DNA of 10,534 nucleotides from an uncultured archaeon (GTDB lineage Archaea; Asgardarchaeota; Thorarchaeia; Thorarchaeales; Thorarchaeaceae). This document shows positions 345-10,495 of the stretch, in pieces. The notes beneath the pieces are model-generated. The model was not told the DNA's origin, did not search any database, and saw nothing but the letters and a program-made list of their open reading frames with translations. Location: positions 1 through 10,534 of the forward strand of contig CAYYQL010000060.1 of the NCBI GenBank assembly GCA_964473825.1. Reading direction: 5' to 3'. How positions within the stretch are numbered: position 1 is the stretch's first letter; every line of letters starts with the position of its first letter. A program made the position numbers and the translations under genes.

Positions 345-392
345 AAAAAGGGGAAGAAGAAACGAGAGAGCGTTCACATTGCCCTCTCTCGT
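345..392 (-). terminator. hairpin plus pyrimidine-tract terminator following the displaced etfA tail
   Basis: 9-bp perfect inverted repeat ACGAGAGAG (362-370)/CTCTCTCGT (384-392), followed on the minus strand by TTCTTCTTCCCCTTTTT. It starts 7 nt after the TAG at 400-402. Confidence 0.65.
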
Positions 393-399
393 GTAGATA

Positions 400-537
400 C
401 TACTGTTTCTCCGCCTGCACGCGCTTGATCTAGTCGATAATCGCCGGGATCACATCGAACAGGTCCCCTACAATACCGAAGTCCCCAACCTGGAAGATTG
501 GTGCCTCGGGATCCTTGTTCACGGCAACTACGATAAT
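400..537 (-). pseudogene. etfA: displaced 3'-terminal fragment of an ETF alpha subunit gene
   Basis: Minus strand translates [44 protein letters not shown]. 30/41 aa are identical to the C-terminus of the etfA at 3297-4496. There is a premature TAG at 430-432 where etfA has Glu, and no clear etfA similarity upstream of about 540. Confidence 0.92.
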
Positions 538-687
538 GCTATTCGATGTAGCCACTTGATGAGCCGAACACGGCAAGGTGTACAGCGGTGACTCTCAGAT
601 GCAGGCATCCTGTTGAGCTTCACACAAGAAGGTTCAAGAACTGAATCTGTTATCAAGGGACGTTAGTAGCTGAGGGGTATTCCCGAG

Positions 688-1290
688 ATGAAACATGATA
701 GGCACAGGCCGGTTCTGATTGTGTTCTGTCTATTGCTGATCTCCCCTTTCGCGAGGATGTGTTCGGCTACATCGGACCAAGTTGGCCAAAGGATATCTGA
801 CGACCAAGGACCCACCATAACGCCAGAAATGCCCAACTTCATAGATACCATTGGGACAGGCGAGTGTGACGAGTATCCCTTAGTTCTTCGTGCGGGCGTG
901 AATGATTCAGCAGGTGTGTCACAAGTAATCGGCAGCTATTGTAATCGATTAGACGGAGTCTGGCATAATGTGACCATGTCCGTCAGTCCTGAATTCGAGA
1001 GTCGTGTCGTCTATGAATCAGAGCCGATCAACTATACCCTCTGTAACCACAATACCAGCGTGGTCTGGGACATCATATTCTACGCTCAGAACTCCTTGGG
1101 TATATGGTCGACGGAGAACACATCTCAGAGCGTCTGCAGGATATGGATCTCAAACAGCAGAACTACAACATCCGCAGATCTCTCAGGAGTTACCATTCTG
1201 CTGATATTCAGTGTGGCGGCAGCCACCATCGTGATTGTAGCATATGCGAAACGTGTCGGTTCTTCAGCATCCGGCCAAACCAGTAGATGA
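688..1290 (+). CDS. small single-pass membrane-anchored surface protein with one predicted Ig-like beta-sandwich domain
   Basis: GAGGGG RBS at about 672-677; N-terminal signal peptide (RHRPVLIVFCLLLISPFA); beta-rich domain ending IIFYAQNSLG; Ser/Thr linker; C-terminal TM helix plus KR; several N-x-S/T sequons (NDS, NVT, NYT, NTS, NTS). Confidence 0.8.
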   Translation: MKHDRHRPVLIVFCLLLISPFARMCSATSDQVGQRISDDQGPTITPEMPNFIDTIGTGECDEYPLVLRAGVNDSAGVSQVIGSYCNRLDGVWHNVTMSVSPEFESRVVYESEPINYTLCNHNTSVVWDIIFYAQNSLGIWSTENTSQSVCRIWISNSRTTTSADLSGVTILLIFSVAAATIVIVAYAKRVGSSASGQTSR

Positions 1291-1513
1291 AGCATGTGAC
1301 GGCTCCAATAACAAGTGCGATTAGGAATGGATATCCAATAGCAATTCGCCTTGGCATCGCTTAGAGAGGGCGGCCAACCCTGAAGAGTATGACCACTGGG
1401 GTCAGTGAAGGACAGACCCTGGAGTTTTCAGTTCATCAGGAGACCAAGGTGAGGAGATTCAGTCTGAACCAGAACCACTGAAGACACCGTGTCATGTCAT
1501 TGTCTTGGGTTGT

Positions 1514-2968
1514 CTAATCAGACACAGCCGATGGAGACCTATACCCTAGCCGGTGCAGAACTATCAGTCCTGAGAAGACGACTGCAACAGAGATTCCGAC
1601 AAGAGTCAGCAGGAGTGACAGAGAACTCAGGATGGGGACATCCTGAGATGACGAAGGATGGACTATGACCATCACGGTATCAGATGCAACGTTGCCAGCG
1701 AGGTCGCGGACCAGCAACGTGTAGTTGTAGGTCCCTACCTCAAGCCCGTCGATGGTGATGCTAATAGTTGATGTCTCCCACGCCCCAGAGTCGATGAGAG
1801 TACCGTTCTGGTACAGTTCGTAGGAGGCGGGATGCAGGTCTGAGACGTGCCAGGTGATGGAATGCCCTGTGGTTTCGGCCTCATACTCGATGTCCCCCGG
1901 ATGATGGATCTCTGGGTCAAGGAGGTCATAGAGGACAGGATGTTCGTCGACGCTCTGAGCAGCGCCCGGCACCTCATAGTCCCCGACACCATCATAGTCG
2001 TCCCAGTAGTTGCCATGGGTTCCGTTGTCCCAACGGTTCACGACACCATCATCGTATCCGTTCGCAGTGTTGTTGAACAGGGTGTTCAGATACATGAGGC
2101 TCCCACTGGCATCCCCCAGAAGATACACACCACACCTGTTGTATGATGCCGTGTTGCGAATGAGTGTGCAATTCCTGACAGAGATGAGTACGAATCCATC
2201 TTCTACATTCGCAGTTGCAGTGTTGTTCTCCAGGGTGCAGTTCTCCGACGGCAGGTGCTCGAAACCGAACCCTAGGGTATAACTGAGGTCGAAGCCGTGT
2301 TGGGTGTTATGGGAAGCCATATTGTCCTTAAGATACAGTCCAACAGCGTAGCGTAAGACGAAGCCTGTCCCCCCATTCGATGAGGCTGTGTTTCCGAATA
2401 CGATGCAGTCAGAGCAGTCGGAGAGAACCACGCCGCTCCCGTTGTTCTCCACCAGCGTGTTCTCGGTGATTGTGCACTGCTTCGCGCCCCAGATAGAAAC
2501 ACCTGTACCGCAGTGGATCACAGTGTTGTTTGTGATAGTGATATCGCTACAGGATGCGAGGTCGATGCCAATTCCGCGATGGCTGATGATGCAGCCCTCC
2601 ACGGCGCCATGTCGAACCAGATGAAAAACGATGCCGTTACTAGCCATTGTGTCAGGAGAGGAGATGAAGCAATCACGGATGACGAAGTAGACGGTGGTCT
2701 GGGAGATAGAGATGGCGGTGTCGTTACTTGTGATGTTCAGCCCCGAGATGACGTAGGGATCCTCCTCGGTGCCGGAGCCGGGCCAGCCCTGGTCGGTGAA
2801 GTTGGTATTTGATGTTATGACGATGGGATCGTGGGAAGTGTACGATGCGGGTTGCGAGATTCCATACTCATCCTGTGATTGACTCAGCAGGCTACCAGAC
2901 CCATGGGGAACATGAACAATCAGCAAGACCATGATGAGTGTGATTGTAGTAGCAGACCTGAGACTCAA
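1514..2968 (-). CDS. NosD-like right-handed parallel beta-helix (PbH1 repeat) surface protein with Ig-like domain and C-terminal TM anchor
   Basis: TTG start with GGAGGAG RBS (2975-2981); signal peptide; WPGSGTEEDPYVI cap motif; repeated C-x-[IL]-x-x-N-T-x-x-x-N-x(2-3)-G-[FIV]-x-L units; WDNGTHGNYWDDY motif; Ig-like GTYNYTLLVRDLAGN; C-terminal hydrophobic helix; many N-glycosylation sequons. Confidence 0.9.
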   Translation of the reverse strand: MSLRSATTITLIMVLLIVHVPHGSGSLLSQSQDEYGISQPASYTSHDPIVITSNTNFTDQGWPGSGTEEDPYVISGLNITSNDTAISISQTTVYFVIRDCFISSPDTMASNGIVFHLVRHGAVEGCIISHRGIGIDLASCSDITITNNTVIHCGTGVSIWGAKQCTITENTLVENNGSGVVLSDCSDCIVFGNTASSNGGTGFVLRYAVGLYLKDNMASHNTQHGFDLSYTLGFGFEHLPSENCTLENNTATANVEDGFVLISVRNCTLIRNTASYNRCGVYLLGDASGSLMYLNTLFNNTANGYDDGVVNRWDNGTHGNYWDDYDGVGDYEVPGAAQSVDEHPVLYDLLDPEIHHPGDIEYEAETTGHSITWHVSDLHPASYELYQNGTLIDSGAWETSTISITIDGLEVGTYNYTLLVRDLAGNVASDTVMVIVHPSSSQDVPILSSLSLLLTLVGISVAVVFSGLIVLHRLGYRSPSAVSD

Positions 2969-3032
2969 CGAACACTCCTCCGGATATGGGTCAGCGATGC
3001 CTCATAGATTGTCCCGCTAAGTAATAAGCACG

Positions 3033-9491: not shown

Positions 9492-9756
9492 CTCCACACA
9501 CCCCTTGGGAATCTAATTCTCTTCGGATTTTATCAACTAGTTTTTTTCTCTCTTCCATCCGTTCCTCAACTCTTCGCCTTTTAACCTCGTCATTGGGCAA
9601 GGCCAGTACACCAAGACGGGCGGCACCATGGATTGTAGAGGTGTTTGCATGCCACAGAGCCGACAATCGGGACGATTTCTTGTACAGAGTAATCGAAACG
9701 AAGCACGGCATCGCATCAACGCCTATCTTCCTCAATGTTTCCACCTCGTCCAACAT
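9475..9756 (-). CDS. hypothetical protein, probably the 3' part of a 5'-truncated gene; charged coiled-coil C-terminus
   Basis: Overlaps the start of the next gene (coupled operon). No RBS, and only 16 nt from the divergent gene start at 9773. Tail EVKRRRVEERMEERKKLVDKIRRELD. Confidence 0.5.
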   Translation of the reverse strand: MLDEVETLRKIGVDAMPCFVSITLYKKSSRLSALWHANTSTIHGAARLGVLALPNDEVKRRRVEERMEERKKLVDKIRRELDSQGVCGDANGN

Positions 9757-9772
9757 CAGTCTGGGAGGATTG

Positions 9773-10352
9773 GTGAACAGATTGAAGCCAAGTAGTTATG
9801 GGGCAATGTGCCTTCTGTTATCAGCGAATCTCCTGTTTTCTCCACCGCGGCTCTACGGTGTGCAAGGCTGTTTCAAGAACGACATACCAATTGATTACCG
9901 GATTAGTTTGGCGAACGAGACCGTATTCAAGAACTACTTCGCCACTCATGACTCCATAACAAGTGAGTATCAGAATCCCACAGTCTATAATAGATGTGTA
10001 CGACCCGGATAGCATCGAAGCAGTCGGGTTCATCTACAGGCGGGCCAATGAGAGCGCAACCCAGACTGAACCAATGGACAAACGGCCCTAGGGTAACAGG
10101 TACTATGGCATCTTCAGCGTCACAGTCAGTGAGCCTGAGACCGACTTCGTCATCCGGTTCTATGCCAACGACACCCTGGGGAACACCGCGTCATCACGGG
10201 AATACAAACTGAGTGTCCATTATTATCCCTACCACTACCATGATTCCGGTATCGTTCTCGGACCAGCCCACTTCATCCTCCTGGTTGTCATTCCTCTCTC
10301 GACGGCCATCGTTGCAGTTCTCTATATCGTGTTCAGGAGAGTCAGATCTTAG
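9773..10352 (+). pseudogene. disrupted Ig-like single-pass surface protein, paralog of 688-1290
   Basis: GGGAGGA RBS (9763-9769) plus GTG 9773 gives MNRLKPSSYGAMCLLLSANLLF... A +1 frameshift between 9960 and 10010 leads into IIDVYDPDSIEAVGFIYRRANESATQTEPMDKRP*GNRYYGIFSVTVSEPETDFVIRFYANDTLGNTASSREYKLSVHYYPYHYHDSGIVLGPAHFILLVVIPLSTAIVAVLYIVFRRVRS*. In-frame TAG at 10089-10091; final TAG at 10350-10352. Confidence 0.82.
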
Positions 10353-10386
10353 CACAAGGCTAGAAGATGACTAGTGCAGAGATCAA

Positions 10387-10443
10387 CATAGATGGCCCAG
10401 AATAGGCATTACGAAGAGTTCTGCGTACATTCCGCTCAAGTAG
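10387..10443 (+). pseudogene. rps19: displaced 3'-terminal fragment of rps19
   Basis: Translates HRWPRIGITKSSAYIPLK* vs [18 protein letters not shown] (8455-8511). 46/57 nt identical, ungapped, including a 19-nt perfect block TACGAAGAGTTCTGCGTAC. Confidence 0.93.
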
Positions 10444-10459
10444 AATGATCTTCAGAAAC

Positions 10460-10495
10460 AAGGGGCATCATCAGCCCTTTCTTCCTTTCTTCTCC
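10460..10495 (+). terminator. hairpin plus pyrimidine-tract terminator following the displaced rps19 tail
   Basis: AAGGGGC (10460-10466)-ATCATCA-GCCCTTT (10474-10480), then CTTCCTTTCTTCTCC. Confidence 0.65.

Follow-up and report, generated by a model that had tools for sequence, protein, structure and literature searches.

Gene hybrids known as mORFs have been described in fungal mitochondria, in atp6 of Allomyces macrogynus and in atp6, atp9, cox2 and nad3 of Glomus (PMC3630166). In mORFs, a homing nuclease brings a foreign C-terminus to a gene and strands the native one (PMC3630166; PMC6279837). C-terminal duplications of cob and atp6 beside LAGLIDADG open reading frames (ORFs) have likewise been found in Endoconidiophora (PMC6279837). 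T4-like phages contain free-standing endonucleases with intronless and trans homing (PMC2988022, PMC2790892), and MobE of T4 acts in trans for a defunct neighbour (PMC2790892). Stacked insertions are known from additive genomic islands at tRNAs (PMC7771536) and from the tandem accretion of integrative mobilizable elements (IMEs) and cis-mobilizable elements (CIMEs) at the 3' ends of rpsI, rplL, rpmG and guaA (PMC5704250). In Asgard archaea, HeimM2 of Heimdallarchaeum, located between a 16S rRNA and a tRNA gene, has a homing-endonuclease homologue proposed to direct its site-specific insertion (PMC8813620), and two papers on Asgard mobile elements describe integrase- or tRNA-linked elements (PMC11529989, PMC8813620). 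Here we analyse a stretch of 10,534 nucleotides (nt), hereafter the window, which is the entire contig C60 of a 3.27-Mb Thorarchaeota metagenome-assembled genome (MAG). In it, intact etfA and rps19 are each followed by cargo genes and then by a displaced, diverged copy of the gene's own last codons, here called a tail. Stacks of genes lie at the 3' ends of rps19 and etfA, and sequence comparison together with fold prediction makes it probable that those at rps19 were founded by a homing nuclease and then extended by gene conversion with the tails as homology arms.

On the features examined, the rps19 site appears to be of the mORF type, with cleavage predicted. It shares with mORFs the gene body, a foreign recoded C-terminus, a free-standing LAGLIDADG gene and a displaced native C-terminus, with mostly synonymous changes and a nuclease that decays in place. 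It differs in lying on an archaeal chromosome and in its nuclease gene, which is convergent, encodes 500–1450 amino acids (aa) with helix-turn-helix (HTH) repeats and is often accompanied by a HerA-like ATPase and a winged-helix gene. Moreover, tails are up to seven deep and bracket unrelated, nuclease-free cargo. The etfA site has the same anatomy, with a limit of tail starts (ceiling) of its own, and is left outside the mORF type because no nuclease was found there. With T4-like homing, the proposed process has in common a nuclease beside a conserved gene that drives one-way gene conversion and can mobilise inactive neighbours; there, however, flanking DNA is replaced, and the accessible part of that literature describes no duplicated gene end or additive stack. 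Genomic islands, IMEs and CIMEs resemble the stacks in having cargo behind a restored target, each unit with a repeat of the target 3' end, but the elements listed in PMC5704250 use tyrosine integrases and att sites, whereas the present stacks have no detected integrase and a crossover that varies. HeimM2 is also an Asgard element with a homing-endonuclease homologue, although no tail replacement at a protein gene and no stack were described for it. A literature search, which missed most subscription papers, retrieved no account of tail stacks in Asgard archaea, nor any of this family of nucleases there. What is new here is a nuclease clade linked to rps19, a module of three genes, a map of the junctions and a survey of etfA.

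The core block of the window runs in the order etfA (with a 4Fe-4S domain), etfB, a DPM2-like gene, phosphomannomutase, a TPR gene and stand-alone rps19, and is mostly kept across the family. Tails and cargo lie on both sides of it:

362–392, minus strand: terminator-like hairpin behind the displaced etfA tail, with a 9-bp stem and a T-rich run after it (345–361)
400–534, minus strand: displaced etfA tail, 43 codons plus end, with an internal TAG (430–432) also present in the second tail on contig C36
688–1290, plus strand: cargo gene for a membrane-anchored Ig-like protein of 200 aa with a signal peptide; an orthologue in the etfA stack of genome G002 is 80% identical
1514–2968, minus strand: cargo gene for a surface protein of 484 aa with NosD/beta-helix and PKD-like parts; an orthologue in the G002 etfA stack is 89% identical
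3265–3288, minus strand: terminator-like hairpin of intact etfA
3297–3468, minus strand: foreign, replaced 3' end of etfA, delimited by a break in identity and in GC content at third codon positions (GC3)
3297–4496, minus strand: etfA, a 4Fe-4S domain fused to ETF alpha, intact target gene
4500–8022, no strand assigned: core block of etfB, DPM2-like membrane protein, phosphomannomutase and TPR protein, used as tail-free control in relatives
8092–8511, plus strand: rps19 (uS19), intact target gene; across the family, tail starts reach their ceiling at about 8422–8426 (codons G111/E112)
8539–8555, plus strand: terminator-like hairpin of intact rps19
8796–8942, minus strand: decayed piece of one more winged-helix gene belonging to the nuclease module (E 2e-10, internal stop)
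8958–9497, minus strand: gene for a tandem winged-helix protein of 179 aa, the small module gene, convergent to rps19
9487–9783, minus strand: what remains of a free-standing LAGLIDADG endonuclease gene, about 99 C-terminal codons that have lost both catalytic motifs (profile E 5e-26)
9806–10352, plus strand: broken gene for an Ig-like membrane-anchored protein, with an in-frame stop (10089–10091) and a frame change
10384–10443, plus strand: displaced rps19 tail, 19 codons plus stop, eroded on its 5' side
10460–10480, plus strand: hairpin that follows the rps19 tail and overlaps the point where the next, convergent gene stops
10471–10534, minus strand: 3' end of another and older winged-helix gene of about 221 codons, which goes on into contig C6, where a LAGLIDADG remnant precedes it

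The etfA tail (129 nt plus stop) is 69% identical to the intact end, with 27 of the 38 mismatches at third codon positions, and the rps19 tail is 81% identical to its intact end over 57 nt. Their local alignment scores of 128 and 105.5, respectively, compare with means of 39 and 35 and maxima of 63.5 and 80.5 in 1000 shuffles. Each of the four hairpins was confirmed, and no two are alike. The T-rich stretch that follows the rps19 tail represents the coding end of the convergent winged-helix gene, whose stop (10471–10473) lies inside the hairpin. Given these scores and hairpins, the two-sided layout with displaced tails and differing terminators, noticed in a first-pass annotation of the window, is real. 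The same annotation read it as two independent insertions. Tails do exist at both genes, but the insertions are not single units: contig C36, which continues the left side by synteny with the congener G002, has another etfA tail in which the premature stop recurs, and contig C6, which overlaps the window end by exactly 55 nt, continues the right side. The 3' end of a gene for a TSP3-repeat, membrane-anchored protein (1–280) belongs to the etfA unit that comes next and is older. The divergence between a tail and its gene is 13–36%, mostly at synonymous sites, and since the mismatches are mostly at third positions, the tails are former working gene ends of other lineages.

The case for a shared Ig-like family in both cargos, next to each tail, is weak. 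Pairwise similarity between the left and right genes is non-significant (best E 0.55 in that stretch), and a profile search reached the right-hand copy, which is broken, only at the third iteration (E 9e-6), while the reverse search fails. The family has several members elsewhere in the genome, and a special role for it beside the tails is unsupported.

Tail starts are sharply bounded. In 67 distinct rps19 tails, the best start is never more than 87 nt before the stop and reaches 79–87 nt in 46 of them; the seven codons just upstream of this ceiling are highly conserved. For etfA tails the ceiling lies 149–159 nt before the stop, and groups of shorter tails occur at about 130 and 95 nt. Intact genes are mosaic from the ceiling on: between close genomes, change-points cluster 76–100 nt (rps19) and 153–171 nt (etfA) before the stop, and past them third-position mismatch climbs from 0.13–0.17 to 0.34–0.48. 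This is also seen in the etfA of the window, where identity to G002 falls from 89% to 66% at 169 nt before the stop and GC3 is 0.43 in the last 56 codons, compared with 0.67–0.70 in the body and 0.72 in the displaced tail.

A filled and an empty rps19 locus (L088 and L089, respectively) give the direction of growth. L088 has one extra 1.2-kb unit next to rps19, and its first tail, together with the terminator and the following 2 kb, is a 94% match to the intact end of L089. The tails are therefore displaced ends, and addition is polar, with new units entering beside the gene; incoming DNA restores the gene and displaces the native end, as had been supposed. The gene in L088 is replaced from upstream of -100, and its tail switches to recipient sequence at about -19. 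More generally, the right-hand crossover varies from about -65 to -16, and the left-hand one belonging to the same event lies in the gene, upstream of -100. Because the right crossover varies within the tail and the left one lies upstream, the exchange is non-reciprocal. Identity is limited to the first 8–19 nt in tail pairs with common upstream cargo and to the last 8–19 nt in pairs with a common downstream side. Junctions that vary in this way and are non-reciprocal are compatible with gene conversion or a double crossover with the tail as right arm. They do not match a fixed att core, and no crossover fixed at an att core was observed. The tail itself would serve as the second homology arm, which argues against an illegitimate second joint, suggested in the first-pass annotation, as the usual route.

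The 50 units found between tails have a median length of 1.5 kb, and 34 of them hold one ORF. A terminal hydrophobic segment is present in 32 of the 69 inter-tail ORFs versus 481 of 2941 genome-wide, a set that includes spurious ORFs. No nuclease or winged-helix match was detected in any of the 50 units. Scores along the stacks show no clear trend that would indicate a decay gradient. The etfA and rps19 3' ends are, as first proposed, repeated entry points enriched in surface cargo and encoding no recombinase.

Tails of rps19, retrieved as C-terminal-only matches, occur in about 30 of the 74 family genomes with an rps19 match, with up to seven on one contig, and in none of the non-family genomes checked. 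Those of etfA occur in about 19 of 68 family genomes. No second C-terminus of the TPR, phosphomannomutase, etfB or DPM2-like gene was detected in 51–109 loci each. The empty-site alleles expected in relatives were found, for rps19 in L089 and for etfA in G006, G021, G010 and G024, where the gene joins a conserved downstream gene pair directly. Two complete tandem copies of etfA or rps19 at these sites, the paralogues that would point to plain duplication, were found in no relative. A genome-wide tail scan of the window's own genome, also proposed earlier, retrieved one further convincing case: the hdrA-mvhD fusion gene on contig C3 (C3:50039-55681; L156:6040-11680), with a 58-codon displaced tail 5.3 kb downstream. 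This tail is apparently rare in relatives, and its cargo includes a homologue of the left Ig-like gene of the window. Candidates on C56 and C5 were rejected as ordinary paralogues. Recurring orphan matches in the scan were several short, dispersed repeat families resembling miniature inverted-repeat transposable elements (MITEs) on C1, C2, C3, C12, C13, C29, C45, C48 and C81.

Two mixed stacks were observed. In G063 (L262, G063:C188), an etfA tail is followed by seven rps19 tails, and behind etfA in G016 (L036:6915-7209), an rps19 tail lies 59 nt ahead of an etfA tail. Cassettes seem to move between the rps19 and etfA sites.

The nuclease module at rps19 consists of a membrane-anchored HerA-like ATPase (850–1180 aa), a giant HTH-repeat protein and, as the last gene, a winged-helix gene. 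No Pfam match was obtained for the last 470 residues of the giant protein, which are predicted to adopt a two-motif LAGLIDADG endonuclease fold. A full-length relative matched the TliVMA and PI-PfuI endonucleases structurally (Z 17.7, root-mean-square deviation 2.7–2.8 over 186–187 residues). In full-length relatives, the acidic motif residues are kept (D in 43/43 for motif 1, D/E in 46/46 for motif 2). The ATPase may be a candidate for donor DNA entry. The nuclease family is present in 52 of 86 family genomes, with up to 10 copies, and in one other Asgard family at similar strength. Its copies often lie head-on within 0–300 bp of conserved gene ends, namely those of adenosylhomocysteinase (SAHH), sufS, several tRNAs and rps19. 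The module was located within 2.5 kb of 12 of the 83 intact rps19 ends, a set that includes some outgroup archaea, and was convergent in all 12. All rps19-adjacent nucleases fall in one clade (support 100/99) and the SAHH-adjacent ones in another. In G031 and G002, all three module genes occupy the interval from the gene, or other cargo, to a tail, and the nuclease is intact between the two ends in these genomes and in G063 and G073. Winged-helix ends lie behind every rps19 tail examined in the window's genus. In G016, a sufS tail is located 4.1 kb past the nuclease copy at sufS.

In the window, the module has decayed. The 179-aa protein is predicted to fold as two winged helices, and its relatives lie directly behind rps19 in many genomes; it was tried as a recombinase and rejected on this fold. 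The nuclease copy at 9487–9783 comprises the last 92–99 codons. Behind the tail another winged-helix gene ends, and a further nuclease remnant precedes that gene on C6. Since second winged-helix and nuclease remnants are present (8796–8942; behind the tail and on C6), the rps19 site was invaded at least twice. A wrecked mobile module makes up most of the right-hand cargo. The LAGLIDADG remnant, the winged-helix genes and the multi-unit stacking had all been missed in the first-pass annotation.

Several further loci of the nuclease family and of the rps19 stacks were noted. A separate nuclease clade lies head-on to SAHH, 18–260 bp from the stop (L204, L208, L219), with no tail found in the sequence examined. 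On the window's own C10 (L152:8058-16817 and C10:20451-20663), an intact ATPase-LAGLIDADG-winged-helix module is located behind an intron-containing tRNA; the 5' 115 bp of this tRNA are repeated at C10:2328-2442, and a winged-helix 3' fragment recurs 4.3 kb downstream. On C6 (59084-61080), a 618-aa LAGLIDADG gene ends within a few bases of a tRNA 3' end; this tRNA has an intron and is tRNA-Trp at the orthologous locus of G002. In G003 (L038:5087-8126), rps19 is directly followed by the winged-helix gene and this in turn by a CRISPR-like array. The G002 rps19 stack (L031:7696-10269) contains a pair of genes for proteins of 396 aa and 460 aa with a weak match to the FokI cleavage domain, and homologues of this pair lie beside type I restriction-like genes on C52 of the window's genome.

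We propose two steps, the first being inferred, with a strong case at rps19. The module nuclease would cut a nuclease-free rps19 allele near codons 111–112, at the ceiling. Repair would copy the donor's recoded gene end, terminator and module, leaving the severed native end as the tail. The module would then decay, as in the window, and the site would be open to re-invasion. A second step is needed because none of the 50 inter-tail units has a nuclease. In this step, a donor allele of the form gene-terminator-cargo-tail would offer two homology arms, the gene body and the tail, and gene conversion or a double crossover would add mostly one-gene, nuclease-free cassettes beside the gene and shift older units outward. 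The pattern of this step is seen in the stacks, its trigger would be a matter of inference, and a dedicated recombinase would not be required. A nuclease acting in trans would probably speed it, and ordinary recombination could achieve the same more slowly.

Several observations weigh against this two-step scheme. The nuclease family is absent from etfA ends (0/65 loci). The tail-rich genomes G007, G088 and G101 have no match to it, and the genus-level association between nuclease and tails (7/5/0/4) falls short of significance, with a one-sided p of 0.07 and kin that are non-independent. At rps19 of G035, a nuclease lies beside the gene without a tail; the rps19 clade also holds copies at other sites, and many copies beside tRNA or SAHH ends have no detectable tail. 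A comparison of the rps19, etfA and hdrA boundaries for a shared recognition motif gave only a loose codon pattern, with no site identified. The crossover map consists of 19 pairs of differing ages. Finally, most inter-tail units have no nuclease remnant, so the second step carries most events and could run nuclease-free. At etfA, no nuclease was found in genome or metagenome loci, and the ten genes adjoining etfA contain no nuclease family in Pfam.

The best-surviving alternative dispenses with the nuclease. One founding event per gene, by homology and an illegitimate second joint, would have been followed by double crossovers, with nucleases as hitch-hikers. This accounts for the second step, the nuclease-free units, the nuclease-less etfA site and the tail-rich genomes without the family, and a single founder would also yield one ceiling. 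It leaves unexplained, however, the target-sorted nuclease phylogeny with kept catalytic residues, the strictly convergent abutting position, the winged-helix ends behind every rps19 tail examined in the genus and the sufS tail behind the same nuclease family. Long upstream homology also predicts left crossovers spread through the gene, whereas they are clustered at the ceiling. We consider this explanation unlikely.

Slightly less likely again is a recombinase of the tyrosine or serine type that acts in trans or has been lost, with CIME-like accretion or additive islands and the nuclease module as one passenger. The sharp ceiling and the position of the newest unit next to the gene would agree with it, and the anatomy is like tandem accretion at ribosomal-protein gene 3' ends in streptococci (PMC5704250) and tRNA-anchored cassettes (PMC7771536). 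The crossovers, however, vary along the tail and are non-reciprocal. The search for orphan recombinases recommended in the first-pass annotation did retrieve one tyrosine recombinase, the only one of the genome (L157:9332-10474; C1:57332-58474), beside two paralogous genes of 569 and 732 aa and apparently in a separate integrated element; no serine recombinase (PF00239) was detected in this genome. No PF00589 match was found near any tail site, and 25 of 41 family genomes had none at all, in a loose first look at incomplete genomes. Tail-bearing genomes without PF00589 include G003, G007, G018, G022 and G031. The product of the small gene beside rps19 is predicted to fold as winged helices and not as a recombinase. 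A near-palindrome in the tail varies at synonymous sites among genomes, and as a Xer/dif-like site it was rejected because it is not conserved across them. Integron features, namely an IntI integrase and attC hairpins separating the cassettes, were not found either: the stack spacers are coding tails of the target gene, and no integrase lies beside the stacks. The trans-acting integrase invoked earlier thus finds little support in the variable crossovers and in the many tail-bearing, though incomplete, genomes without a tyrosine recombinase match. Plain tandem duplication followed by deletion, or assembly chimeras, is highly improbable: although the genome is a fragmented MAG and two other candidates were ordinary paralogues, the tails differ by 13–36% from their own gene and recur in dozens of independent assemblies with one ceiling, empty alleles exist, relatives have no complete tandem copies and neighbouring genes are tail-free.

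Founding by a homing nuclease followed by tail-armed gene conversion would be a route of Asgard gene gain without an integrase, which island finders based on tRNA plus integrase would miss. More tentatively, Thorarchaeota might possess a general system of integrase-free gene capture, in which target-sorted giant LAGLIDADG nucleases with a HerA-like motor open gene ends, the tails act as reusable attachment arms and surface-protein genes are stacked in time order and moved between sites. The stacks record the order of acquisition. uS19 is a common phylogenetic marker, and trees built from it are affected because lineages exchange its last 28 codons. The nuclease family, with its predicted target sites, may supply new meganucleases.

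The rps19 gene lies outside the ribosomal-protein operon in all Thorarchaeota loci seen (window 8092–8511, L001–L030), with the TPR gene upstream and variable DNA downstream. This non-operon setting may explain why insertions are tolerated at its end. Many contigs end exactly at the rps19 3' end.

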